Assembly: GCA_016193585.1 (NCBI GenBank)
Contig: JACPRW010000003.1
Span: forward strand, 129,649 to 193,648
Reading direction: 5' to 3'
DNA: 64,000 nt
Origin: Candidatus Aenigmatarchaeota archaeon
GTDB taxonomy: Archaea > Aenigmatarchaeota > Aenigmatarchaeia > GW2011-AR5
Of the stretch, positions 48,236 to 64,000 are shown piece by piece; position 1 is the first letter of the stretch; every line of letters begins with the position of its first letter. The notes beneath the pieces were generated by a model that worked only from the letters and a program-made list of their open reading frames with translations, did no database searches and was not told the origin of the DNA. The translations under genes were made by a program, and so were the position numbers.

Positions 48236-49321
48236 TCAGTAGAATATTCTCCACACCATGACGCGCGTCGCGAATGTTTCATACCCGTCGAGAACCCCGA
48301 TATGGTGATAGGATACGGAGCGCTGAACTTTTGGAACAGTCTTAAAGGGCGGGTCGAGAAGGAACTGCTCCCCAGAAGCCCACATGATAGACGCTGTGGT
48401 AAGATTGCTGAGAACTTCAGCAGCATTTTCTTCATCCTCATCAGGCGTATAGTGCGCCATCCAGGCGGTCCTGCCCTTGCCTGAAACGGTGATGTTGAGC
48501 TTGAGGTACGAGAACCTGCCGTTGGACGACTCGATGGCGGTCGTTTCGTCGACTGTTATGCAGTTGGCACCGTCGCCGTTGGATTGCGTATTGAATTTCT
48601 TGAAGACAGTATTTGCGTCGAGCCCGGAAATGTTCGCGAAATAATTTCTCACCTTGAACGCGTAAGACGATGGATTTTCCTGCGACTCGGGGAATCGCCC
48701 GTTGCCGTTATTGCCGCCGCAGCCTTGCGGCCTCCAGCTCAGCCCGAACAACGGCCCTATGAAACCGTCTTTCACTTCATTCTCTTTCAGGTCAGCGAGC
48801 ATGAACAGCGTCTTGCCGTTCGCAAGGAAGTTGGACAGGTAGCTCCTGTTGGCCGCGTCAAACTGCCTGTAGCCGAAAAATACGACCACGTCAATGGGCG
48901 CGTAGGCGAGGTTGTCAAGCGAGTCATTGGTCACAACAAGCATAATATTTCTTTTTTTGTAGCCGAATGCTGTGCTGTACAGCATATCCTTTAGTTTCTG
49001 CGTTTCTTCTGTTGTGCAATTGCACCCGATGCGTATCACCGGATTCGGGATACCGCGAACTTCCACTGAAAAATCCACCGTTTCAGGGAGCATCCTTTTG
49101 AGCCTCGTGTGCAGCAGTGTTGCATTATTCAGAAGAATCGCCTGCTGTACTGTCCCGTTTATGTACAGCGATGCCATCGCATCGTTGACCTGAGTCTGGG
49201 TCAATACATCGCCCCAGAACGAGTACCTTTCGATGATAAAAAAATAGGAAAGCGATGTCAGCAGTATAAGCGACGCTATAATTGCCTCAAGAATCCTCAC
49301 GAATCCCTTCCGTTGTTTCAT
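48236..49321 (-). CDS. Pilin-like protein with a class III (type IV prepilin-like) signal peptide (KG|FVRILEAIIASLIL).
   Basis: N-terminal K-G cleavage motif followed by a hydrophobic helix with Glu at +6. Sits in a pilus gene cluster. Confidence 0.6.
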   Translation of the reverse strand: MKQRKGFVRILEAIIASLILLTSLSYFFIIERYSFWGDVLTQTQVNDAMASLYINGTVQQAILLNNATLLHTRLKRMLPETVDFSVEVRGIPNPVIRIGCNCTTEETQKLKDMLYSTAFGYKKRNIMLVVTNDSLDNLAYAPIDVVVFFGYRQFDAANRSYLSNFLANGKTLFMLADLKENEVKDGFIGPLFGLSWRPQGCGGNNGNGRFPESQENPSSYAFKVRNYFANISGLDANTVFKKFNTQSNGDGANCITVDETTAIESSNGRFSYLKLNITVSGKGRTAWMAHYTPDEDEENAAEVLSNLTTASIMWASGEQFLLDPPFKTVPKVQRSVSYHHIGVLDGYETFATRVMVWRIFY

Positions 49322-49821
49322 GCAATCAGCGTGACGTTTATTTCAAGCACCGTGAAGCCCCCGGCTTCTTGGAGCGTGGCGAAGCGGTGGGTGACGAATT
49401 CGGGACGGGATTTACTCTGTTCAAACGGAGGACAGGTCAGGACGGCGCTGTTTTCCCCCGAATCGGTTATGTAAATCGAGACGTCCTCCGACAGACCGAG
49501 GATGCTTTTAAATGCCGCATAGTCCCCGTTGCATATCGCCTGCAGAGAGGTTATTTTGTCGATGTCAAGGATATAGTGCTGCCCCGAAGAAAGGCCGATG
49601 CGCCGCACCTCGCCTAGTGGTTTCGTTTCCCAGTTTTTCGGCTCGCCCTCATCAAAGATGAGCAGTTCCGCTAACTGGTAGCTTTTTGACTTTATGTCAT
49701 CGGTAAGTGCGCGCTCCTCGAGTGAAGGGAACTGGCGCCCGATAGTGATGACGGTGAACGATATGGTAACAAGGAAAACAAGGACAGAGATGACAAATTC
49801 TATGTCGACTACGCCCTTCAT
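49318..49821 (-). CDS. Pilin-like protein with a class III signal peptide (KG|VVDIEFVISVLVFL).
   Basis: As above. Confidence 0.6.
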   Translation of the reverse strand: MKGVVDIEFVISVLVFLVTISFTVITIGRQFPSLEERALTDDIKSKSYQLAELLIFDEGEPKNWETKPLGEVRRIGLSSGQHYILDIDKITSLQAICNGDYAAFKSILGLSEDVSIYITDSGENSAVLTCPPFEQSKSRPEFVTHRFATLQEAGGFTVLEINVTLIA

Positions 49822-49832
49822 TGGAAAGCCCT

Positions 49833-50771
49833 CTATACGATGCCAGTCCGGACAGTTATCAGGAATATCGACACGCCGGTGATGAGAAGTATAGCGCTAT
49901 GCTTCACGCCCGCAGCAATCGAATCCGATCCTATCTGGCCCGCGATGAGGCCGGTAAAGAATCCCTGTACGATAATCATGATGAAGAAAAGCGACTTATA
50001 GTAAGCAGACGGGTCAGTTTTCTCCCCGAAGTCCATGAGCGCAGAAACAGAGAAGAAAGTATTGCAGCCGACGCACGCGCCACTTGCGCTGCTTATGCAT
50101 TCAAAGCAGGGGTTTGAATTGGTCCCTTTGACAAGTCCTATGCCGCTTTCAGACTGCGTCTGGACGAGGGGAATCAGGAATTTGATGAGTGCTATGGTGA
50201 TGCCAAGGAAGATGAAGAAAATGGCGTACATCATGAGCACCTGCTGATTCATGAGCGTGTTTTTTTCCTCCTGAACGTCGCGCAGCATTTCTATGTTGCC
50301 CGCGAGCGACTCCATGGTATCCTCGATATTGCCCCCCGACTTGTTCGATTCAAGTATGACCATCACGGACCGGGAAATTATCCTGCTATTTTTCATCCGT
50401 ACGATAAAGTTGTTGAGGACTTTTTCAAGAGGAACGTTCCAGCTCAGCTGGTTGTCCATTTTTTTTACCTCATGCGTCAGCGAGCCGTAATCCGAGCGCG
50501 CGGCAAGCTGTATGCTCTGGAGGATGCTGAGGCCCGCGCGCTGGGATTCCGCCAGGTCGCGGAGGAAATTGGGGAATTCGCTTTCGAACGCACGCACGCG
50601 TTTGAACTCGAAAAACTTATAGATGCTGTATGGCGCGGTGAGGATGATTATTGCTATGAAAATGAGGTTGGTCGAAAGCGCGAACGATCCGGAGAACGTC
50701 ACGGCAATGCCGATAAGCAGCATGCTTACTACAAAAGAGCCGATAAGAATATTCCGCTCGTTCAGCTCCAT
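49833..50771 (-). CDS. TadC/FlaJ-like polytopic membrane protein (type IV pilus / archaellum platform).
   Basis: GspF/TadC-type domain with paired TM helices. Adjacent to a paralog and the ATPase. Confidence 0.75.
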   Translation of the reverse strand: MELNERNILIGSFVVSMLLIGIAVTFSGSFALSTNLIFIAIIILTAPYSIYKFFEFKRVRAFESEFPNFLRDLAESQRAGLSILQSIQLAARSDYGSLTHEVKKMDNQLSWNVPLEKVLNNFIVRMKNSRIISRSVMVILESNKSGGNIEDTMESLAGNIEMLRDVQEEKNTLMNQQVLMMYAIFFIFLGITIALIKFLIPLVQTQSESGIGLVKGTNSNPCFECISSASGACVGCNTFFSVSALMDFGEKTDPSAYYKSLFFIMIIVQGFFTGLIAGQIGSDSIAAGVKHSAILLITGVSIFLITVRTGIV

Positions 50772-50848
50772 GTTACTTTATTATGCTCCTGCCTATTTTA
50801 GCTTTGTCAGGCAAAGCGCCCCAATCGGCCCAAATCAGCGGGCAGTAG

Positions 50849-51709
50849 CTACTCGAGAGGAGAGATGGATTTGATGATGAGGATAAAGCCTATGGAAAGC
50901 AGCGGAAGGAGGATGAAAACGACGAAGCTCTGGACAAATATCGTTCCGAGCCCCCCCGAAATCGCCGAAATGATGGACGAAAGGACTATGAAAAATATGG
51001 ACCCGGTGATTATGAGTGTCAGGTAAATTTCGACAAAAAGCGAAAGGTCCTGTGAGTACTTCCGTATCCTTCTTCGGTAGTCGTTCATGAGTTCGTCGCC
51101 CTTGTTCTTCAGGTAGATGGTGAGGTCCCCGCCTGAGGAAATGACGGTATTTATTCCCCACAACAGCTCCCTGAATTCAGTCGACGGGGTGCGCTTGGAT
51201 TGCTTCTTGACTGCCTCGGAAAACGTCATGCCGAAGACCTCGACGTCCCTCGCAATGTTCCCCGCTTCCTTGGCGAGTTCGCCGTACTCCTCGAACTGCG
51301 CCAGCGTCTTGAAAAGCACTATCGGCGGGACTTTTGCGCTCGAGATGGTCGAGAGGTACGAAACTGAAAAGGGCAGCATCTTCTTGATTTTGCTTTCCCT
51401 CGTCTTTGCCTTGGTGGCGGGATAAGAATAGAAGAGGAAAAAAATGAGGCCCGATAGTGCCAGAGAAAGCGTCAGCCCAAGGACGATGGCTATGACAGGC
51501 GGCGCCAACAAGCCGAAAATAAACGAAAGTCCTATCGTCTCGAGGAAGAATGTCCAGGCGGTCGTGAAAACGGCAGTGGCCAGCCATTCTTCAAGCGTAT
51601 AATTGAGGTTGGCACGATGAAGATCGTCGCGTATGTCAAGAAAATACGGTTTGATGAGTTTCACGATGTCCTCGAAAAGCCTGTACGACAGATTGACGTA
51701 ACTTATCAT
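50849..51709 (-). CDS. TadB/FlaJ-like polytopic membrane protein (second platform gene).
   Basis: Paralogous to 49833-50771. Overlaps the ATPase gene by 4 nt. Confidence 0.75.
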   Translation of the reverse strand: MISYVNLSYRLFEDIVKLIKPYFLDIRDDLHRANLNYTLEEWLATAVFTTAWTFFLETIGLSFIFGLLAPPVIAIVLGLTLSLALSGLIFFLFYSYPATKAKTRESKIKKMLPFSVSYLSTISSAKVPPIVLFKTLAQFEEYGELAKEAGNIARDVEVFGMTFSEAVKKQSKRTPSTEFRELLWGINTVISSGGDLTIYLKNKGDELMNDYRRRIRKYSQDLSLFVEIYLTLIITGSIFFIVLSSIISAISGGLGTIFVQSFVVFILLPLLSIGFILIIKSISPLE

Positions 51710-53517
51710 ATGGCTTCGATCCTTCCAAGCAGGTAATCAGGGGAGGTGTAGAAGAGATTTATCACAGATGCAATCTTCCGGTAATCGGTGATGTTGTTGA
51801 GAACCGTCCATTCAAGCACCTTTGCGCGCTTTTTGAGCTCCTCCTGGACGGCATAGTCGTCAAGCCCGCTCGCCTCGGCTATCTTCCTCAAAAGCACGCT
51901 TTTGTTCGTGTTCTTGTACACGTCCATCTTCGGGTCCCAAGAAAAGACCTCGTCGACGATAGGCGCGTTGAGCTTGTCGTTAAAGCCTATGACCTCGACC
52001 GAGCTGTTCACGCGTCGCAGGTATTTTTTCCCCTGTTTTATCCTCTTCAGGAATATAATCACGTCGAGGTTCTGCATCAGGTTTGGCGGCAGGCTTATGG
52101 GAGGCGACGTGAGCCTGTCGACGAGTTTCGGGAAATTTTCGGCGTGGATGGTGGAGAGGCCGGGATGGCCGACGGCCATCTGCTGGAAAAGCACATACGC
52201 TTCCTTACCACGAACCTCGCCGACGATGATGTAGTCAGGCCGCTGCCTGAGCGATTCCCTCAGAAGCTCGAACATGTCAACCTTGCCCTCCTCTGCTATC
52301 GGGGTCCGTGCCACCTCCGGCACCCAGTGCGAGTGCGGGAGCCTTAGTTCTGCGGTATCCTCTATCGAAATGATTTTCATCTGCGGCTTGATGAAGAGGG
52401 ACAGCACATTGAGTAATGACGTCTTCCCCGTTGCTGTGCCGCCGGAGATGAGGAACGAGGAGCCGTGCTCAATGAGCATCCAGTAATACGCCATCATGCG
52501 GATGTCGCAGGTCCCGAACTTGACGATGTCAAGGGGAGTCAGCGGCTTGTCGGTGAACATCCTGATGGTGTAATTGGACCCGCGCCGCGCTATGTCACTC
52601 CCAAGCGTTGCCTGGACACGCGAGCCGTCGGGGAGAGTGCCGTCAAGGAGCGGCTTTGAGATGGATATTGTCCTGCCGCACCGCTCGGCAATCTTATTCA
52701 CGAAAGAATCGAGCTCGTCGCCGTTGGTGAAGACGACGTTCGTCCGCAGCGACCCGAGGCGCGGATCACGGTGGTACACGTAAATGTTTATGTTCACGCC
52801 GTCACACGAAATATCCTCGATGCGATTGTCGTTCAGTATAGGCTCTATCTTTTCGAGGCCGACGAAATCCCTGAATATGTAGTACCGAAGGATTTCCCGT
52901 TTCTCGTCGTCGAAACGTGAGTGGAAATAATCAAGTGCCTTCTCAAAAACGGCGGCGATGTAGTTTATTGCGTCCCTCTTTCGTACATGGGAAAAATTTA
53001 TGTCGACTTTTTCCTGGATGTACTCCTTTATCTCATGGACGAGCATCTTCATGCGCGCGTCAAGCGGCGGCTCGACAACATCGTATACAACCTGGTTCGT
53101 GGACTGGTCGTAGTGGATATACGCGTACGCAAAAATTCGCTCCCCCTCCTTCGGATTTTGCGGTATAAGCGGATAGGTAATGCTTATGTTCCTCAGCTCA
53201 AGCAGCTCCTTCGTCACCGCCTCAAGGTCCTTTGTTTTGAGCCTCTCCACTTCGGTTTCTATCGGCGGCACCTTGATGCCAGTTGCGATTTTAATTTGAG
53301 TCTCCTCATGGCCACTGCTCTCCTTCTGTGCGCCGCCGGAAAATCCTGTTCCTTGGGCAATGACATTGCCGCCGATGGGCATCGAGGCCGCTATATAGCC
53401 TGTTGTTATGCCGTCTGCCTTCGGCTTCGGATTGAATTTGAACCGTATCTTCTTTGTTCCGGTGTTCGTAGCCAGGCGTACGATGAGGTATTTTTCCTTT
53501 GCCTGTAGCTCTGCCAT
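51706..53517 (-). CDS. FlaI/TadA/VirB11-family secretion ATPase, with an about 130-aa N-terminal extension.
   Basis: Walker A GGTATGKTS, Asp and His boxes typical of type II/IV secretion ATPases. Confidence 0.9.
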   Translation of the reverse strand: MAELQAKEKYLIVRLATNTGTKKIRFKFNPKPKADGITTGYIAASMPIGGNVIAQGTGFSGGAQKESSGHEETQIKIATGIKVPPIETEVERLKTKDLEAVTKELLELRNISITYPLIPQNPKEGERIFAYAYIHYDQSTNQVVYDVVEPPLDARMKMLVHEIKEYIQEKVDINFSHVRKRDAINYIAAVFEKALDYFHSRFDDEKREILRYYIFRDFVGLEKIEPILNDNRIEDISCDGVNINIYVYHRDPRLGSLRTNVVFTNGDELDSFVNKIAERCGRTISISKPLLDGTLPDGSRVQATLGSDIARRGSNYTIRMFTDKPLTPLDIVKFGTCDIRMMAYYWMLIEHGSSFLISGGTATGKTSLLNVLSLFIKPQMKIISIEDTAELRLPHSHWVPEVARTPIAEEGKVDMFELLRESLRQRPDYIIVGEVRGKEAYVLFQQMAVGHPGLSTIHAENFPKLVDRLTSPPISLPPNLMQNLDVIIFLKRIKQGKKYLRRVNSSVEVIGFNDKLNAPIVDEVFSWDPKMDVYKNTNKSVLLRKIAEASGLDDYAVQEELKKRAKVLEWTVLNNITDYRKIASVINLFYTSPDYLLGRIEAI

Positions 53518-53519
53518 TG

Positions 53520-53966
53520 CTATCCCCTGAGCAGGTCTATTGTGCCGCCAGCAGACCTGACCTGAACGTATCGTGTTGCGCTGTGCACGCTGCCTCTTAA
53601 ATTATAACTTTCCTCCAGTTTAAAAATTTCCCTTGTGAAACTCACCGATGCCGTGCTTATGTTGAGTAAGCAGCGTTCCCCACGTTCGCACACTCTCCCG
53701 TTGGCATCGTGGATGCGCATGAGGTACGGCTGTTCCGAAACCGTCTCCGGCACCGAAAAGCTCACGGTCATGTTGGTTGCATTCGTCTTTCCTACGATGA
53801 CGATTGCAGAAGCGATGGCATCGGAAACCAATGAAAGCTGGCTTCTCGTCGCCTTTTCCTTAAGCGTATTCTCCAGCAGAGCAAAGTTGAGAATGACAAA
53901 ACTGGTTATGGCAAGGCCGATGGCGAATATGAGGATCTCATTTACAATAATATACTGGCCCTTCAT
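53520..53966 (-). CDS. Pilin-like protein with a class III signal peptide (KG|QYIIVNEILIFAIGL).
   Basis: As above. Confidence 0.6.
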   Translation of the reverse strand: MKGQYIIVNEILIFAIGLAITSFVILNFALLENTLKEKATRSQLSLVSDAIASAIVIVGKTNATNMTVSFSVPETVSEQPYLMRIHDANGRVCERGERCLLNISTASVSFTREIFKLEESYNLRGSVHSATRYVQVRSAGGTIDLLRG

Positions 53967-54003
53967 ATGTACATTATAATGCTGCCACTATATATACAGT
54001 GGC

Positions 54004-54594
54004 TTATTCTATCCCAATCCTGACAAAAGTCCGCGTGACATCGCGCCCGCTTGCGGTTGTCGTTGCAGACCCGGCGCTCTCGATGATGATGCTGCGCTGT
54101 TCGGAGCCCGTTGCATTTCCGCCGATAAGCTCGATGCGGTATGACAGGATGCCAGGCGTGTCGAGCGTTATGAACGTGAGCCGGTAGTCATGCTCCATGA
54201 CGGTATCCACCTGCTTCGTTTCGACGCAGAGGCTCGAAGGCTCGTCAGTTCCCCATATCCCCCGCGTCATGGTGCAGCTGTTCCTGCTGAGCGAGATAAG
54301 GCCAGGCACGTAGATGCTTCCCTTGGTATTTATAGCCAGCCTCACGCTGTTGCTGCGGTTGTCGAATATCACGGTACCCGGAACAGATATCTGCAGCCTG
54401 TCCCTACCCCCATGATTGGCGATATATTTTATCTTGTCGTTGAGTTCATGGGCAAACCGCTCTGAATTTTCAAGCGTGGCGATGTCACGGTTTTTTTCGA
54501 TGAGTGGCAGTCCCCAGAAGTATACCGAGCCCACGACGCCAAGCATGACGCCGGTAATAAGCACGGCAGAAAATGCCTGAATGCCTTTTCGCAT
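54004..54594 (-). CDS. Pilin-like protein with a class III signal peptide (RKG|IQAFSAVLITGVML). Start placed at M34.
   Basis: As above. Confidence 0.55.
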   Translation of the reverse strand: MRKGIQAFSAVLITGVMLGVVGSVYFWGLPLIEKNRDIATLENSERFAHELNDKIKYIANHGGRDRLQISVPGTVIFDNRSNSVRLAINTKGSIYVPGLISLSRNSCTMTRGIWGTDEPSSLCVETKQVDTVMEHDYRLTFITLDTPGILSYRIELIGGNATGSEQRSIIIESAGSATTTASGRDVTRTFVRIGIE

Positions 54595-54619
54595 AATATC
54601 ATATCTGTTTTGCGATATA

Positions 54620-54713
54620 TATAGTGAATTGCGTTGCTTATGACCTATGAAAACGCAATTCGCTGGATGAGAAATGCGCAGCTCCAAGGGCATATGCTGC
54701 GCATTTCTCCATA
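54620..54713 (+). repeat. R3 family repeat, copy 3 (stems conserved, loops diverged).
   Basis: Compensatory pattern relative to copies 1 and 2. Confidence 0.7.
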
Positions 54714-57995: not shown

Positions 57996-58139
57996 GGGCC
58001 GGTAGCTCAGTGGTAGAGCACCAGTCTTATATGACAGCCTGGTTTAAGCAGGAACAAGCCCGGCTATCGTGGTTAACTGGCGACATGTTCCGCATCGCGG
58101 AGATGCCAGAAGTCGTGAGTTCGATCCTCATCCGGCCCA
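57996..58139 (+). tRNA. tRNA gene spanning 144 nt, with about 68 nt of intervening sequence that is probably two introns. Anticodon tentatively UAU (Ile) if the first intron is at 37/38.
   Basis: Canonical 5' part (gggccgg-ta-gctc-agtggta-gagc-a) and 3' part (gtgag-ttcgatc-ctcat-ccggccc-a). Anticodon stem ccagt pairs with actgg 44 nt downstream. A further about 29 nt separates the stem from the variable loop. Confidence 0.65.
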
Positions 58140-58177: not shown

Positions 58178-58522
58178 TCACGGAGGGCACCCGCAGGCCT
58201 GTTTGCAGTCGCTGGCACTTGTACCTTCCCCTGCATGCCTGGCCCAGCCGAACTTCAGTTCGCATGCCCGTGCAAGTGTATTTCCATCAGTCCCGTCACT
58301 GTCAGGGTCAAAGTTCGCTAGTGTTATGCCGCTCGGCGCTGTACCACACTTGTGAATATAGAACAGCTGGTTGCACCCGTCAGAAAACGCCTTTTCGACG
58401 GTAAGTGTATTCGAGCCTTTAGACAAATTACTGGAGAACAGGAAGCCGATTGTGGCGAACACAAGAACGGCCAGCAGCAGTATGACGGTTGTTTCTATCG
58501 ATAGGGAGATGCCCTTTGCCAT
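58178..58522 (-). CDS. Small pilin-like protein with a class III signal peptide (KG|ISLSIETTVILLLAV) and a Cys-containing globular domain.
   Basis: N-terminal motif shared with the two Cys-rich paralogs downstream (x-x-L-x-x-E-T). Confidence 0.55.
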   Translation of the reverse strand: MAKGISLSIETTVILLLAVLVFATIGFLFSSNLSKGSNTLTVEKAFSDGCNQLFYIHKCGTAPSGITLANFDPDSDGTDGNTLARACELKFGWARHAGEGTSASDCKQACGCPP

Positions 58523-58567
58523 GCAGTACGTATGGCATTCTGGATTTATAAAGAAGAGGAGAAGGCG

Positions 58568-58882
58568 CTACTTCTTCAGCACGACTTCGATGGTCGAGAC
58601 GTTGAGCTTTTCCTTGTTCTCATTCTCTATTTGTTCAGTGCCTATCCTGATAGCAGCGACTTTCGCGTCCTGCACGAACTTGTTCCGCACGATTTCCGCC
58701 ACGTTGACAGCGGTGGAAATCGCGTTGCCCCGCGCCTTCAGGTGGACCTCGTTCTGGCCTTCGCTGAACTGCGTCACGACTGCAAGAACATATGACATGC
58801 TTGGCTTCTTGCCCACGAAGACCACGTTGTCGCCTGCCCTTTCTGCCATTTGTGTCATCCCTGCTGTTTCTATTCGTAGCAA
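58568..58882 (-). CDS. albA: Chromatin protein Alba.
   Basis: Alba family full-length match ([20 protein letters not shown]...[14 protein letters not shown]). Confidence 0.9.
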
Positions 58883-59065
58883 TTACTGAATTTCCTGAAC
58901 GCCATTATAGGGGGCGGCAAAGTTCTTAAGGATTAGGGACACGGTATCCATGATTCGCAGCCGCCTGTGCTATCGCAGTTGCAATAGACCGACGAACACG
59001 CAGTGCACTGATCCTGGTAGCATGCTACATCTTGAATCGACATGAGAGTAAAAGAAAAGTTTTAA

Positions 59066-59545
59066 TCACCTGCAGCATTTGTAGGTGCTATCGAGTGGAG
59101 GTTTTTGACAGTCAGGAGTGCCTTGCGTCAGCTCCCCGCCTGGACATGACTTTCCGCAGCTGGTACCGCCGAGATCCTCTCTGCATCTGGGCATGCCGTT
59201 GCACTGGTCGCCGCAGCACTGCCAGATGCACTGCTGGCTTGCTGCCTGGCCGGTGGTGCAGCCCGGGTAGCCGCCTTCGCGCTGCTTGAGGCCGCCGCAT
59301 GCGTTCGCTATGCGGAGCCTGATGTCGTTGAGGTCGCTACGTTCGGTGCAGCCGGGCTCGTGCTGCGTATACGCGCTGCAGGCGGTTACCTTTTCCCGGG
59401 TGAGGCGCACCGTGTCGCCGAACGGGTTGGCGTTGCCCGTGAACACGAAGGCAAGAGAAGCGAGAACAATAAGGGCAAGAACAACGAGAACGATGGTCTC
59501 AACAGACAGCGCGACGCCTTTACGTTTCACATCTATTTGCAGCAT
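59066..59545 (-). CDS. Cysteine-rich pilin-like protein (class III signal KRKG|VALSVETIVLVV; about 15 Cys in a roughly 110-aa ectodomain).
   Basis: Signal motif plus a conserved Cys spacing shared with 59533-60066. Confidence 0.55.
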   Translation of the reverse strand: MLQIDVKRKGVALSVETIVLVVLALIVLASLAFVFTGNANPFGDTVRLTREKVTACSAYTQHEPGCTERSDLNDIRLRIANACGGLKQREGGYPGCTTGQAASQQCIWQCCGDQCNGMPRCREDLGGTSCGKSCPGGELTQGTPDCQKPPLDSTYKCCR

Positions 59546-60066
59546 TTGTAACCCCCCGTTGTCGACGATGTCTGGCACGACGGGCTGCTCGATTGTATTT
59601 CACGCTTGCCCGCAGGGCAGTTTGCCTCGCACGTGCCGCCGATTTCCCGGCAGCTTGCCGTTCCCCTGCAGTAGGTGCTGCAGCACTGCCACACGCACGC
59701 CAGTGATGCAGTGCCGGTGCAGTCCGAATAGCCTCCCTCAAGTGCGCGGAGCGCCTTGCAGGCAACTGCCACACGGTTGCGCGCGTCATTGACCTCACTG
59801 GTGCTCGCAGGGCTGCCCAAGTCAATGCTGCATTCCGGGTCCTTCTGCGTATACGCGCTGCAGGCGATCGCCCGTTCACGCTCCTTGGCAACTTTGTCGC
59901 CAGCCGGTGGCACGTTGCCCGAAAACAGGAAGAGCAGCGCGGCGAGGACGATGATGGCGAGCACCATGAACGTCATCGTCTCGAGCGGCAGTGCCGCGCC
60001 CTTAAAGGACGAGGGCCCGGGTTCTCTTCGACATCTACTGATTACCATAGCACGCATCAGATTCAC
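59533..60066 (-). CDS. Cysteine-rich pilin-like protein, paralog (class III signal FKG|AALPLETMTFMV).
   Basis: Aligns with 59066-59545 (ACSAYTQ..P.C ... EGGY..CT ... WQCC ... CRE.GGT.C ... YKCC). Confidence 0.55.
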   Translation of the reverse strand: MNLMRAMVISRCRREPGPSSFKGAALPLETMTFMVLAIIVLAALLFLFSGNVPPAGDKVAKERERAIACSAYTQKDPECSIDLGSPASTSEVNDARNRVAVACKALRALEGGYSDCTGTASLACVWQCCSTYCRGTASCREIGGTCEANCPAGKREIQSSSPSCQTSSTTGGYKCCK

Positions 60067-60088: not shown

Positions 60089-63000
60089 TTATGCGCAGCC
60101 GCCTCCTTGTAGAGGCCCGCAGTACGTGTTTGAATCGCATGCGCCGTTGCTGCAGCAGTTCATGTGCACGCCAGCAGGGCAACCGGGGTCTGTGCAGTCC
60201 TGCGAGCACCAGTCGTTATAGGTGCAGCCCTCAGGACCAGTACAGCCGCCAGATGGCGGTGGAGGCGGCGGCGGGGTGGATGACCTGCAGGTGCTGCCAG
60301 AGCAGCCATTGCTGCAGTCTCTAACTTTTTCAGATTGTGGCGTGGAATCTTGGTAACACCCGCCTCGTGGATCAGAGCAGCCTATTGTATAACACGTTCT
60401 GTCGTGCCAGATATTGCCGTCCGCGGCATTGCAGTACTCAGAGCCCCATGGAGCGCAGCCGCTTATGAGCCCGGGACAGTTTTGAACAGTGCATACCGAG
60501 CTGCATACTGCCGACGTTGTCGCGCATTTCCCCGGCTCTATGCCGTCGCAGAGCGCATCAGCGCCGCACTGCGAGGCGCACGCGCCTCCATGGTACGCCT
60601 GCGCAAGGGCAGCATCGCTTGTGGGGTCAATGCCGTTTGCGCAGGATTGCGGCGCATCCTGCCTGCACTCCCATTTCCTCTTTGTCGGAGCGTCACAGTA
60701 AAACGAGCAGCCGCTGTTTTTTGCGTCGTCCCTGGTTGGCGTGCCGCTGCATTCCTTCCGGTAATCGCAAATCTCGTTCCGGTCCTTGTCCGTATACGCG
60801 TCGCCGAAGCAGTACGTCCTGCTGTTGCACGTGTTCGTTCCGCCGCGCCATGTCGGGGCAGGCGTGTCCGGCCAGTTCCATTTCTCGCAGCACTGCTTGC
60901 CCAGCGCCTCCCGCGGATTGATGCCGTCGTCATGCTCCTTGCAGAATATCGGGTTGCACGGTGGCGTGTCACATGCAGTGACGCACTGGAAGTCGCCGAG
61001 ATTGGTGTCCTGCTGCTTCTTGTAGGTGTCCTCCATACCAGGAATGGCACGCTCAGCGCTCGGTGACTGGCATGCATAGAACTTCCCGCCGACGCACACC
61101 GTATCCTTCTCGGTCAGCCAGCTGAACTGCTCGCTCGTATACTCCCTACAGTCAAGCACGCCAAGGTAATCCTTCACGCTGACGTCGAGCTGGAACGGCT
61201 GCTTGACAAACCTGCTGTTCGCTTCATCGTGATAATAGTAGCCCGGTCCGCTGGCTGCTGCTGGCGGCGGCGGAGGCGGCATGCCACCCGAAGAGCAGAG
61301 CCCCAGCGTGATTTCCGGATTTGCGACGGGCTGTTTTGACTGACCGCTCTTCTGGACTTGGACCTGGATGTGCACATGACCTTTGCCGCAGTTTGGTGCA
61401 GTGCTGGGGCAATCAATATTCGGATACAATCTGCCTGCAACGGCCCCGGACCAGGCTCTTGCGTTCTCTCTTCCTGACGAGAAATCACCCTCGTTCCTGA
61501 GGTGCGTCAGGTAGATTTCGTAGGTGTCCGTTCCTGCAGTTGTCCTGAACGTCTTGCCGTAGCCGAGGCCGCTGGCGCCGCCTTCTATCTGCACGAACGT
61601 CCATTCGACGGCATTCCCCTTTATGGTCGGCAGATAGACCTCGTAATTGTCAGTGCCGCCAGGGCCCTGAACGTCAATGCCGGTTACGGTTCTCGGGAAT
61701 TGCGTGCACCAGCTCGGCAGCGGCGTTCCATAGCCTTTGCCGCAATGCTCGCACGTCGCATGGCCAGAATTGAGCGAGCCGCAGCTGATGGTCGGGCTCT
61801 GCATCGGGCACGACATTCCCGAAGCAATGCTTTGAAGATACGTGTAACAGCCGTACACCTTGTCGGCGTACGCGCTGTCATGATTATAGCACCACGCCTG
61901 ATTCCATGCGACAGGACGCGCCGGGTCGCGCACGCTCGTCGCGCACGCCTTGAGGTAGGCTGCAGCAGCGGTCACCGAATCGGCTAACGTCTGGATGTCT
62001 GCGGTGCCGTCGCCGTTTCCATCCCTTCCGTAGCCTCCGGCTTGCTGGATGCGGTTCGGATTGGTATCAACAGGATAGGTCTGCTGGTTGCTCGACACGC
62101 AGTTGTAACCTTGCAGCACCGGGTTCGTGCTCCCGCTCCATGTGCACGGCATGAACTGGAACGGACCCTTCGCGCCTTTCGGCGAAGTGCCCCACGGTCC
62201 GTCAGGGTTCGGCCACGGCCGGCTGAACTCTTCGGCAGCATTGTCTGTTTTGCACGATGATGTCGGGCATGCATTCCCTGCATGCTCGCCGCACTTGAAG
62301 ATTGCTGCAATGAGCGCAGCAGGCGTCCCTTCCTGGTTCGACGCTGTCACGAAGATGGTATTGTAGGGCGCAGGAATGCCGGTGATGCTCCCCCCGCCGC
62401 TGCCTGGCGGCGTTGATGTCCCGCTCCCGTCTCTGAATGTTCCGGTGAGGTCGTATGCGAGCACCAGCCCTGCCTGGGGCGGCAGTATGCCGCTCTCGGT
62501 TGTCGGAACTTTCACGTGCAGGGCATTGATGACGAACGCCGAGGTGATGCTGTCCGTCTGCAGCCAGCTCTTGATTTCGTTTGCTTTCGAGAGCAGGTGC
62601 GTCTCTTTCTGGGTGCGGTACGTTTCATGAGTCATGGCATTGTTGATATCACCCGGCGACGCAGGATAATCATGCAGCCTGCCTGCGGCTGTACTGGAGA
62701 ACTCGGTTGCAACGCCGACGAGCCGCCAGCCCCCTGCGACGAGCTTCTTGAAAGGGGTGAAGATGACGTTGTCGTTCCGCGTTTCTGCATCAACGTGCGT
62801 ACCCAGATAGCTCGCCTGCAGGCGCTGCGTGACCAATGCAGTAACGCGGTCATAGGCAGGCCAGAAATTATTCGGCCTTGCGTCAAGCCGTATGCCGGTT
62901 ATGCCGAGCCGCACGTCGTTGACAGCCGGGTCGGACGGTATGGACAGATACCCTTGCATGATGCCGAGCAGGTAGTCGGAAACATGCTTGTTCTGCGGCA

Positions 63001-63349
63001 GGCATATTTTCGGGTTTGCAGTATCGGCGTTACACTTCCCCGCCTCCGGGACGATGATGCGCTTCTGTTCGGTCGGGTCGGTGAGGTACCAGTACCGCTC
63101 TCCGACACCCGTATAACCTGTCTTGAATATCGTCTGTATGGTGGACACGTACCACGTCATGCCGAGCGAGCGATTGGCAAGGTAGAACGTGTTTTTCGCC
63201 CGCAGCAAACCTGCTTCCTCGATGTTGATTTTGTACGTCTTGATGTTCGTTCCGAAGACTGCTATGCCGAAGATGAGGCCTATCAGTACGATGCTGATGC
63301 CGTAGAACAGGAGCTGGGCCGATGGGCCGCCGAATCCCTTAGCCGCCAA
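60089..63349 (-). CDS. Giant (1086 aa) membrane-anchored, Cys-rich extracellular protein with a lytic transglycosylase (SLT/lysozyme-like) domain and poly-Pro linkers.
   Basis: N-terminal TM anchor. A central segment AAEEFSRPW...SPKGAKGPFQFMPCTW...CYNHDSAY matches SLT motifs I-III (ES-x-F, S-x-x-GA-x-GLMQ-x-MP-x-T, AYN). The C-terminal 350 aa contain more than 60 Cys and PPPPPPP linkers. Confidence 0.65.
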   Translation of the reverse strand: MAAKGFGGPSAQLLFYGISIVLIGLIFGIAVFGTNIKTYKINIEEAGLLRAKNTFYLANRSLGMTWYVSTIQTIFKTGYTGVGERYWYLTDPTEQKRIIVPEAGKCNADTANPKICLPQNKHVSDYLLGIMQGYLSIPSDPAVNDVRLGITGIRLDARPNNFWPAYDRVTALVTQRLQASYLGTHVDAETRNDNVIFTPFKKLVAGGWRLVGVATEFSSTAAGRLHDYPASPGDINNAMTHETYRTQKETHLLSKANEIKSWLQTDSITSAFVINALHVKVPTTESGILPPQAGLVLAYDLTGTFRDGSGTSTPPGSGGGSITGIPAPYNTIFVTASNQEGTPAALIAAIFKCGEHAGNACPTSSCKTDNAAEEFSRPWPNPDGPWGTSPKGAKGPFQFMPCTWSGSTNPVLQGYNCVSSNQQTYPVDTNPNRIQQAGGYGRDGNGDGTADIQTLADSVTAAAAYLKACATSVRDPARPVAWNQAWCYNHDSAYADKVYGCYTYLQSIASGMSCPMQSPTISCGSLNSGHATCEHCGKGYGTPLPSWCTQFPRTVTGIDVQGPGGTDNYEVYLPTIKGNAVEWTFVQIEGGASGLGYGKTFRTTAGTDTYEIYLTHLRNEGDFSSGRENARAWSGAVAGRLYPNIDCPSTAPNCGKGHVHIQVQVQKSGQSKQPVANPEITLGLCSSGGMPPPPPPAAASGPGYYYHDEANSRFVKQPFQLDVSVKDYLGVLDCREYTSEQFSWLTEKDTVCVGGKFYACQSPSAERAIPGMEDTYKKQQDTNLGDFQCVTACDTPPCNPIFCKEHDDGINPREALGKQCCEKWNWPDTPAPTWRGGTNTCNSRTYCFGDAYTDKDRNEICDYRKECSGTPTRDDAKNSGCSFYCDAPTKRKWECRQDAPQSCANGIDPTSDAALAQAYHGGACASQCGADALCDGIEPGKCATTSAVCSSVCTVQNCPGLISGCAPWGSEYCNAADGNIWHDRTCYTIGCSDPRGGCYQDSTPQSEKVRDCSNGCSGSTCRSSTPPPPPPPSGGCTGPEGCTYNDWCSQDCTDPGCPAGVHMNCCSNGACDSNTYCGPLQGGGCA

Positions 63350-64000
63350 GTGCTATCACCATTTCTCCGTACAAATTGCCTTTGTAAAAAAGCGGAACCG
63401 CAGCCGACCCGATAAGATTCGCTGCCGCCATGAGCTGCGGATTCTTCGCCATGCAGCAGATGGGCGTCTCGCCGTTGTTGATGTCCAGGCAGTCGCCGGT
63501 GTCATCTATTTTCACCATCGTCGCGCCGCATGGCAGGTAGGTGTCTCCCAGGACCCCTGCATTGCAGATGCCGAGCGCGTAATCGCCGCAGGTTACGACG
63601 GCAAATTTTCCCGGCGTCCCCCCATTGCCTCCCCTGGACGCATACGCAGGCGGGTCGTACCTGCAGCACCTGACAGCGCTGCTTCCCATCTTCTTGTCGC
63701 AGCGTGAGGGGTCGTTGTAGTCGGGATTTTCCTGCACTTCCACAAACCCAACCGGGCACGGCTCGAAGTTGGTAAACTGGAAATTGCCTATACATGTCCC
63801 TTCCTCTACCTGCCCGCAGCGAAACGGCGTGTTATCAAATGCGAGAATCTTCTGGGAGTTGCGCATTACCGTGAACCCGTAGTAATCGCGCAGCGCGTAG
63901 ATGCCGACAAACTCACCAACAGAACGTTGCACCGCCGCTTCATCAGAGCCTGCGGCTCCCGCCGAGCCCGCCACCGACGTTTCGAGCGCGTGCTCGAGGA
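63339..64000 (-). CDS. Cys-rich hypothetical protein, 5'-partial. The reading frame continues past the window edge, so the start is not in the window.
   Basis: Open frame with no stop up to position 64000. About 20 Cys. Confidence 0.45.
   Translation of the reverse strand, partial: LEHALETSVAGSAGAAGSDEAAVQRSVGEFVGIYALRDYYGFTVMRNSQKILAFDNTPFRCGQVEEGTCIGNFQFTNFEPCPVGFVEVQENPDYNDPSRCDKKMGSSAVRCCRYDPPAYASRGGNGGTPGKFAVVTCGDYALGICNAGVLGDTYLPCGATMVKIDDTGDCLDINNGETPICCMAKNPQLMAAANLIGSAAVPLFYKGNLYGEMVIALGG

Follow-up and report, generated by a model that had tools for sequence, protein, structure and literature searches.

Background

Does a set of small, cysteine-rich proteins in the Aenigmarchaeota build a filament that carries a wall-degrading enzyme to other cells? 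The question is raised by a stretch of 64,000 nucleotides from a Candidatus Aenigmatarchaeota archaeon (GenBank assembly GCA_016193585.1, contig JACPRW010000003.1, positions 129,649 to 193,648 of the forward strand), which we refer to as the window. A preliminary description, made without database searches, had singled out three adjacent genes, here called A, B and C, placed them between alba and the gene for a giant SLT-like protein, and described them as one family of cysteine-rich, pilin-like proteins that bear class III signal peptides. We know of no cultivated member of the Aenigmarchaeota, and to our knowledge neither their hosts nor their contact machinery has been described.

The comparisons reported here make it, on balance, probable that a type IV filament (TFF) has A, B and C among its subunits, which would be processed by a prepilin peptidase and deployed together with the giant protein, a putative hydrolase. 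The locus opens a way to test how members of an uncultivated phylum make contact with their hosts, since it presents a conserved pilin-like set around a predicted wall-degrading enzyme that itself has a pilin-type N-terminus. The A and B families could also be used as simple metagenome markers for the locus.

Pilin-type N-termini

The three open reading frames (ORFs) lie where they had been described, all on the minus strand (Table 1), and each begins with K-G, followed by x-x-L-x-x-E-T and an uncharged run of 30-33 residues, one Glu being allowed. The K-G pair occupies residues 3-4 in A, 9-10 in B and 22-23 in C. With the predicted cleavage site marked by a slash, the N-termini read MAKG/ISLSIETTVILLLAVLVFATIGFLF in A (the same segment written ISLSIETTVILLLAVLVF, in which ISLSIET opens the hydrophobic segment, or H-domain), MLQIDVKRKG/VALSVETIVLVVLALIVLASLAFVF in B (segment also written VALSVETIVLVVLALIVL) and (V/M)NLMRAMVISRCRREPGPSSFKG/AALPLETMTFMVLAIIVLAALLFLF in C (segment also written AALPLETMTFMVLAIIVL).

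Class III sites were judged by the criteria summarized in reviews (PMC4371748; the EppA motif also in PMC2910488), which for archaea specify a charged residue at -2, G, A or S at -1 and an H-domain directly after the site (PMC4371748). A, B and C all carry such a pair, K-G, near the N-terminus, with an uncharged hydrophobic H-domain of about 20 residues right behind it. The earlier reading of these N-termini as class III-type signals thus agrees with the published sequence criteria, and the positions concerned are 96-98% conserved in the family to which B belongs. Across 169 homologs of that family, position -2 is K in 163 and R in the other six (K/R 100%), and position -1 is G in 165 (98%) and A in four. 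I, V or M follows at +1, S at +2 and L at +3, and then E or D at +6 and T at +7, each in 163 homologs (96%). When all six frames of the window were scanned for [KR][GA]-x3-5-E followed by an uncharged hydrophobic run, seven matches were returned, and five of these coincide with N-termini, namely those of A, B, C and two proteins encoded in the pilus locus described below. This placement, together with the near-invariance among the homologs, argues that the motif is not a product of chance.

The near-invariant Gly at -1, for which Ala is the sole alternative, and the acidic residue near the start of the helix favor prepilin processing and assembly by PilB/PilC. The leader is a three-residue MKG in 97 of the 169 homologs, and PibD cleaves leaders down to 3-4 amino acids (aa) (PMC4307647, citing Ng et al. 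2009), so these short leaders fall within its range and also favor the pilin interpretation. The main alternative is that A, B, C, the giant protein and its partners are uncleaved type II signal anchors in an envelope complex, serving remodelling of the cell's own wall or envelope, or division, without polymerizing; K-G would then simply be the positive, cytoplasmic end of the anchor. We regard this as unlikely, though a serious contender. A plain anchor needs no invariant Gly, and the constancy of position -1 together with E/D-T at +6/+7 over 169 sequences is hard to explain on those terms.

Two families of Cys-rich proteins

A word-indexed homolog search with B alone returned only B itself. 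An exhaustive search with a profile of B and C revealed a family of at least 174 cluster representatives at E ≤ 1e-3, 40 of them at E ≤ 1e-10. Members are mostly 100-125 aa long and have MKG at residues 1-3. In the ectodomain the conserved positions are eight Cys only (C56, C66, C83, C96, C106, C110, C111 and C115 in B numbering). A conserved N-terminal helix joined to a variable head is the classic pilin pattern, and it favors the assignment of these proteins as pilins.

B and C are clear paralogs, as had been proposed (47% identity, E 5e-41 in a pairwise protein comparison), and the blocks that had been quoted for them, ACSAYTQ..P.C, EGGY..CT, WQCC and YKCC, are all present in the alignment. 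The reported count of about 15 conserved Cys needs correction: B has 14 and C has 15, one of which lies in the leader, leaving 14 that are aligned and conserved. Each protein is the other's closest relative, which points to a lineage-specific tandem duplication, and by homolog comparison B/C is a lineage-specific duplicate of the single B-family gene found in other genomes. The stop codon of C overlaps the ATG of B, which is preceded by GGGGGT. The start of C is uncertain: a GGAGGT box precedes GTG 60066, and ATG 60057 and ATG 60048 are alternatives.

A is a different matter. It resembles B over the first 44 residues only (E 8e-5, pairwise comparison), and its ectodomain of about 80 aa has six Cys and ends in CGCPP. 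A profile search with its own family returned at least 257 clusters, in which K3, G4 and the six Cys are invariant. The description of a single family of three thus stands for the N-terminus, which all share, but not for the ectodomain; judged by these alignments, A is a separate family and no paralog of B/C in its ectodomain. Its mature N-terminus, ISLSIETTV (58490-58522), fits the B-family consensus [IV]S[LI]AIET and not the A-family LELP[IV][NS]M, a match suggesting that in the lineage of the window an N-terminal segment was exchanged between neighboring pilin-like genes.

All named members of both families are annotated "hypothetical protein" and come from Aenigmarchaeota/Aenigmatarchaeota or an unclassified "archaeon", and all the homologs of both lack a precomputed Pfam domain. 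There was no PDB family match for the A, B and C proteins, and a likeness to the CHCH protein NDUFB7 was too weak (E about 2) to be taken for more than noise. By their sequences, then, A and B/C are two Aenigmarchaeota-specific families. No relative was found on viral contigs, and for that reason a mobile or viral origin was rejected.

The head of B was modelled with AlphaFold from a 60-sequence alignment, which superseded a poor model from a two-sequence alignment (predicted local distance difference test, pLDDT, 59.8). The resulting pLDDT is 78.3, and about 80-97 for residues 11-115. An N-terminal helix (14-37), broken at a conserved G-N/P segment, is followed by helices 42-62, 70-90 and 104-110. 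The head is presumably a small all-alpha domain stapled by four disulfides. The preliminary description had called for a structure prediction of the ectodomain, and the result is unlike solved pilins and archaellins, in which a long N-terminal helix carries a beta-rich head.

A minority of the B family, including B and C, has an additional C-terminal module, C-x6-8-C-x3-6-C-x7-16-C-x5-10-CC, which we found in 17 members; the spacing is 8-3-11-10-0 in B and 6-3-13-10-0 in C. In beta-defensins the Cys pattern is C-x4-8-C-x3-5-C-x9-13-C-x4-7-CC. This resemblance, and the position of B and C directly downstream of a gene for a putative lytic enzyme, would suit proteins made as precursors and then set free as soluble, disulfide-rich effectors, such as defensin-like antimicrobials, toxins or adhesins, which would act on target cells jointly with the hydrolase. 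Such a role is very improbable. The tail is wholly absent in 123 of the 169 family members, it is modelled at a low pLDDT of 52-69 with two short strands, and Pfam gives no defensin or toxin match at E ≤ 1. Class III cleavage would, moreover, leave the hydrophobic helix in place, and there is no evident further site at which it could be cut off.

A conserved cluster around a predicted modular hydrolase

Synteny was compared in about 15 other Aenigmarchaeota genomes (labelled L002-L020). In about 15 genomes a B-family gene lies directly behind the ortholog of the giant gene, which bears out the proposed link between the small proteins and the giant SLT-like protein. The cluster comprises about 11 genes in the order g353 - (g43) - g40 - g551 - g137 - g387 - g319 - g614 - B family - Alba - A family (one or two copies) - FEN1/XPG. 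The window holds its 3' half, in which the giant protein is g614 and the fragment at the window end is g319. Alba stands between the B-family and A-family genes in most genomes examined (L002 8411-8707, L005 10493-10783, L019 10813-11100 and others), and its protein identity across them is only about 30%. With the same arrangement in the window, the interval from alba to the giant gene contains B and C only. For these two the position originally given was right, but A lies on the other side of alba, which interrupts the trio.

Five cluster families begin with [KR]G and a hydrophobic stretch: g137 (6 of 11), g319, g614 (13 of 13), B and A. Their N-terminal consensuses include MKG/Q..LPEE in g319, MKG/[VL][EQ]PLQW in g137, where it is less consistent, and MKG/LELP[IV][NS]M in the A family. 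The retention of K-G before the helix in these families suggests that the cluster encodes as many as five pilin-like proteins, graded in size, of which one would be an enzyme, and the occurrence of several K-G proteins in one conserved cluster favors the pilin interpretation. Three further members, g353, g387 and g551, have N-terminal transmembrane helices without K-G, as an envelope complex of signal anchors would allow.

The giant protein of the window begins MAAKG/FGGPSAQLLFYGISIVLIGLIFGIAVF, again K-G and a hydrophobic stretch. It has an SLT-like GPFQFMP motif near residue 395, an M23-like region at residues 556-675 and a very Cys-rich C-terminal part of 330 residues with poly-Pro linkers. 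The M23-like region keeps HVH, but the first His of HxGxD is replaced by Thr; on this substitution the domain may be inactive. The sole Pfam match is a weak one to SLT_2 (E 0.36), and phmmer returned no match in the PDB. Three elements are constant within the g614 family, namely [KR]KG/[VA]GTT[VI]G with its hydrophobic run (13 of 13 sequences), a domain of some 250 residues behind it and the C-terminal motif YYHDE..RFVK.PF. The catalytic content is modular: M23 only, SLT only, VanY+SLT+M23, or none recognizable. The L020 ortholog has VanY (1.6e-36), SLT (1.7e-23) and M23 (2.5e-27), that of L019 has SLT_2 (2.3e-6), and M23 was recorded for those of L002 and L005.

This swapping of hydrolase domains looks like that of a payload and unlike a core wall remodeller, which tells against the signal-anchor alternative. 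We also know of no archaeon of the Aenigmarchaeota group that possesses murein, a further point against an enzyme for the cell's own wall.

In archaea, class III signals occur on enzymes and binding proteins as well as on pilins (PMC2910488), so a hydrolase with a K-G N-terminus is plausible as a payload borne by a filament or pseudopilus. The same precedents, with the Bas system (PMC2910488; bioRxiv 10.64898/2026.04.22.720090), and the presence of small K-G proteins beside a large K-G enzyme in one cluster would also suit a surface display or uptake platform that is exported by class III signals, is not a pilus, and displays the hydrolase as its cargo, after the bindosome of Saccharolobus solfataricus. 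The Bas operon, however, has its own ATPase and platform genes and the cluster has none, and we consider such a platform quite unlikely, more so than the signal anchors.

The chromosomal setting is a housekeeping one in every genome examined, with Alba, FEN1/XPG and aEF-1beta next to the cluster. This context, with the failure to find viral relatives, favors the pilin interpretation; a fixed place beside these genes is equally what an envelope complex of signal anchors would lead one to expect.

Candidate assembly machinery and proposed mechanism

An apparently complete type IV filament locus is present in the window, with a PilB-like ATPase, two PilC/T2SSF platform genes and four low-Cys pilin-like genes (Table 1). 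The latter begin MKG/QYIIVNEILIF, MRKG/IQAFSAVLITG, MKG/VVDIEFVISVLVF and MKQRKG/FVRILEAIIASL; two of the four show weak similarity to haloarchaeal DUF7266 and DUF7289. Archaeal TFF system 1, and also some DPANN 4A loci, have this combination of one ATPase and two platform genes (bioRxiv 10.64898/2026.04.22.720090). As far as gene content can indicate, the locus may encode the machine that assembles A, B, C and the giant protein. Besides the window, L004 is the only case of such proximity, with a T2SSF gene immediately upstream of its cluster. PilB, two PilC and four more K-G proteins in the window, with the T2SSF gene of L004, favor the pilin interpretation. "PilB" matches 3.5 kb from the cluster in L007, L008 and L012 were rejected as PIN+KH PilT-like ATPases, which are not pilus ATPases.

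Several observations weigh against the filament interpretation. No Pfam family matched A, B or C at E ≤ 1, NCBIfam gave noise only, no pilin model was among the matches, and the Pfam family Class_IIIsignal matched none of the three. EppA-type (DUF361, QxSxExxxL) euryarchaeal pilins have Gln at +1 and Glu at +5 (PMC2910488, PMC4371748), whereas in the B family the acidic residue is at +6 and there is no Gln at +1. K-G before a transmembrane helix fits a positive-inside signal anchor equally well. There is no PilB/PilC within 10 kb of the cluster in most related genomes, and no peptidase A24 (PibD/FlaK/EppA) was found among the approximately 46 window ORFs scanned, nor beside the pilus locus; a scan of the window for G-x-G-D-x-K returned only the small subunit of carbamoyl-phosphate synthase and a short spurious ORF. 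The separation of the ATPase and platform genes from the cluster, the lack of a peptidase among the scanned ORFs and a predicted head that is not pilin-like are all points for the signal-anchor alternative.

If A, B and C are filament subunits, a PibD-like peptidase would cut behind Gly and so take off the short basic leader, which is MAKG for A, MLQIDVKRKG for B and some 20 residues for C. The hydrophobic helix that is left, with its conserved Glu at +6, would be packed at the center of a type IV filament, or of a short pseudopilus, assembled by a PilB/PilC machine. The small heads would face outward, with four predicted disulfides and the 6-Cys tail in B and C and three predicted disulfides in A. 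B/C and A may be the main shaft subunits or minor pilins. Such a filament could take in the hydrolase through the pilin-like N-terminus of the latter and hold the enzyme against the wall of a neighboring, probably bacterial, cell.

A broader and tentative proposal, which we hold to be possible but unlikely, is that of an apparatus derived from type IV filaments throughout the Aenigmarchaeota, in which shaft or minor subunits with all-alpha, disulfide-stapled heads (the B and A families) and a largest, pilin-like subunit with interchangeable peptidoglycan-hydrolase domains attach to and breach bacterial walls; bacteria would then be indicated as hosts or prey of these DPANN. Were the filament interpretation true, the B head would add a new structural type to those of type IV filament subunits, and the locus would be an example of a filament functionalized by a lytic enzyme. 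It would also be genomic evidence for contact with murein-walled bacteria rather than archaea.

Other features of the window and the cluster

Table 1. Positions of the features discussed, counted from the first nucleotide of the window.
Feature	Position	Strand	Basis
Type IV filament locus, 3.5 kb from gene A	48236..54693	-	
Low-Cys KG-type pilin-like genes (four)	48236-49321, 49318-49821, 53520-53966, 54004-54693	-	
PilC/T2SSF platform gene 1	49833-50771	-	T2SSF 1.7e-15
PilC/T2SSF platform gene 2	50849-51709	-	T2SSF 9.5e-16
PilB-like ATPase	51706-53517	-	T2SSE 4.6e-32 and PilB3_C
Gene A, 114 aa, NCBI HYY37_02320 (identical)	58178..58522	-	ORF and protein match
Gene A, leader MAKG	58511-58522	-	Sequence
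TATA-like box TTTATAAAT, ~26 nt upstream of the A ATG	58544..58552	-	Read from sequence
alba (chromatin protein), between B and A	58568..58882	-	Pfam Alba 9e-20
Gene B, 159 aa, NCBI HYY37_02330 (identical)	59066..59545	-	ORF and protein match
Gene B, 6-Cys C-terminal tail, aa 116-159	59069-59200	-	Alignment
Gene B, 8-Cys helical core, aa 56-115	59201-59380	-	Alignment and AlphaFold
Gene B, H-domain	59432-59515	-	Sequence
Gene B, leader MLQIDVKRKG	59516-59545	-	Sequence
Gene C, 177 aa counted from GTG 60066, tandem paralog of B	59533..60066	-	
Gene C, 6-Cys tail	59536-59667	-	
Gene C, 8-Cys core	59668-59862	-	
Gene C, H-domain	59914-59997	-	
Gene C, Arg-rich leader, 17-23 aa, ends FKG	59998-60066	-	
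Giant protein, 1086 aa, 60 Cys, g614 ortholog	60089..63349	-	
g319-family protein, C-terminal part, runs off window end	63339..64000	-	

The TATA-like box TTTATAAAT suggests that gene A has its own promoter and a leaderless mRNA. Convergent with A, and with 39 nt between its 3' end and the A stop codon, is a tRNA gene at 57996-58139 on the plus strand that was missed by ARAGORN (Rfam tRNA, 49.8 bits, E 2.2e-9). It has a 44-nt insertion past the anticodon loop and, in the variable region, another of about 30 nt; judged by the loop sequence, CUUAUA, its probable anticodon is UAU (Ile). Elsewhere the window is housekeeping in character (RadA, RPA, CarB, alanyl-, leucyl- and phenylalanyl-tRNA synthetases, Topo VI, FtsZ, L10 and thermosome). 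The NCBI proteins identical to A and B, both annotated "hypothetical protein", are encoded on a 345,983-bp contig of a metagenome-assembled Candidatus Aenigmarchaeota genome.

Two Cys modules with the spacing C-x7-C-x11-C-x12-18-C-x10-CC are present in the g319 fragment, and their closing CC recalls the tails of B and C. When a hidden Markov model of the B/C tail was compared with the ORFs of the cluster, only g319 orthologs matched, twice each and without significance (E 0.15 and 4.7), which leaves homology of the two kinds of module unproven.

The head of the cluster, which falls past the end of the window, has one or two conserved membrane proteins of only 39-49 aa with a single helix and the consensus MR[IL]EY[IV]VV... 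(L002 1139-1397, L005 3466-3750, L004 4019-4313 and others). In L019 (11181-11964) and L020 (6502-7707) the A-family gene is separated from Alba by an inserted HepT/MNT toxin-antitoxin pair or DDE transposase, indicating that this junction tolerates insertions.

Comparison with known systems

We found no description of the two families, of their all-alpha head, or of the cluster with a pilin-type hydrolase; a full-text literature search on Cys-rich pilins of DPANN returned one unrelated paper. Like archaeal type IV pilins and other TFF subunits (Epd/system 1, Aap, Ups, haloarchaeal PilA), A, B and C are small proteins whose short leader is basic and has K at -2 and G at -1. An H-domain of about 20 residues, with an acidic residue early in its helix, follows and is predicted to stay in the mature protein, and genes for an ATPase and two platform proteins lie nearby. 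They differ in matching no pilin model, in having Glu at +6 instead of +5 and no Gln at +1, and in that the B head is predicted to be all-alpha with eight conserved Cys and not beta-rich; genes of the A and B families also usually lie apart from the ATPase and platform genes.

A functional analogy can be drawn with the minor-pilin and tip complexes of bacteria (FimU-PilVWXE with PilY1; GspH-I-J-K), in which, too, several pilin-like genes of graded size, one of them very large, form a conserved operon. No homology to these was detected, and here it is the large member itself that has a pilin-like N-terminus and swappable peptidoglycan-hydrolase domains.

The suggestion of a previously undescribed pilin class agrees with the absence of Pfam, NCBIfam and PDB matches, but conserved Cys as such are not new: Makarova et al. 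2016 noted them in some pilus components of Thermoproteales (PMC4858521). Those components and the pilin of Pyrobaculum arsenaticum belong to unrelated families of hyperthermophiles, encoded in loci with their own ATPase, and an all-alpha head is not described for them. Makarova et al. also considered that dark-matter proteins with signal peptides near the pilus genes of DPANN are probably diverse pilins (PMC6393860). The Saccharolobus solfataricus bindosome (BasABC) likewise combines small pilin-like proteins with large proteins that carry class III signals (PMC2910488). In the Aenigmarchaeota cluster, which belongs to another lineage, the cargo would be a wall hydrolase and not a sugar-binding protein, and there are no genes like those of the BasEF ATPase and platform.

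Castelle et al. 2021 reported large surface proteins with SLT domains in other DPANN, proposed that they bind or degrade bacterial walls, and listed an Aenigmarchaeota-specific module (128) without a functional prediction (PMC8204110). The giant protein of the window resembles these in its very large size and SLT-like domain. It differs from them in its K-G N-terminus, in the M23 and VanY domains that often accompany the Aenigmarchaeota form, and in its fixed place in a cluster with small Cys-rich proteins.

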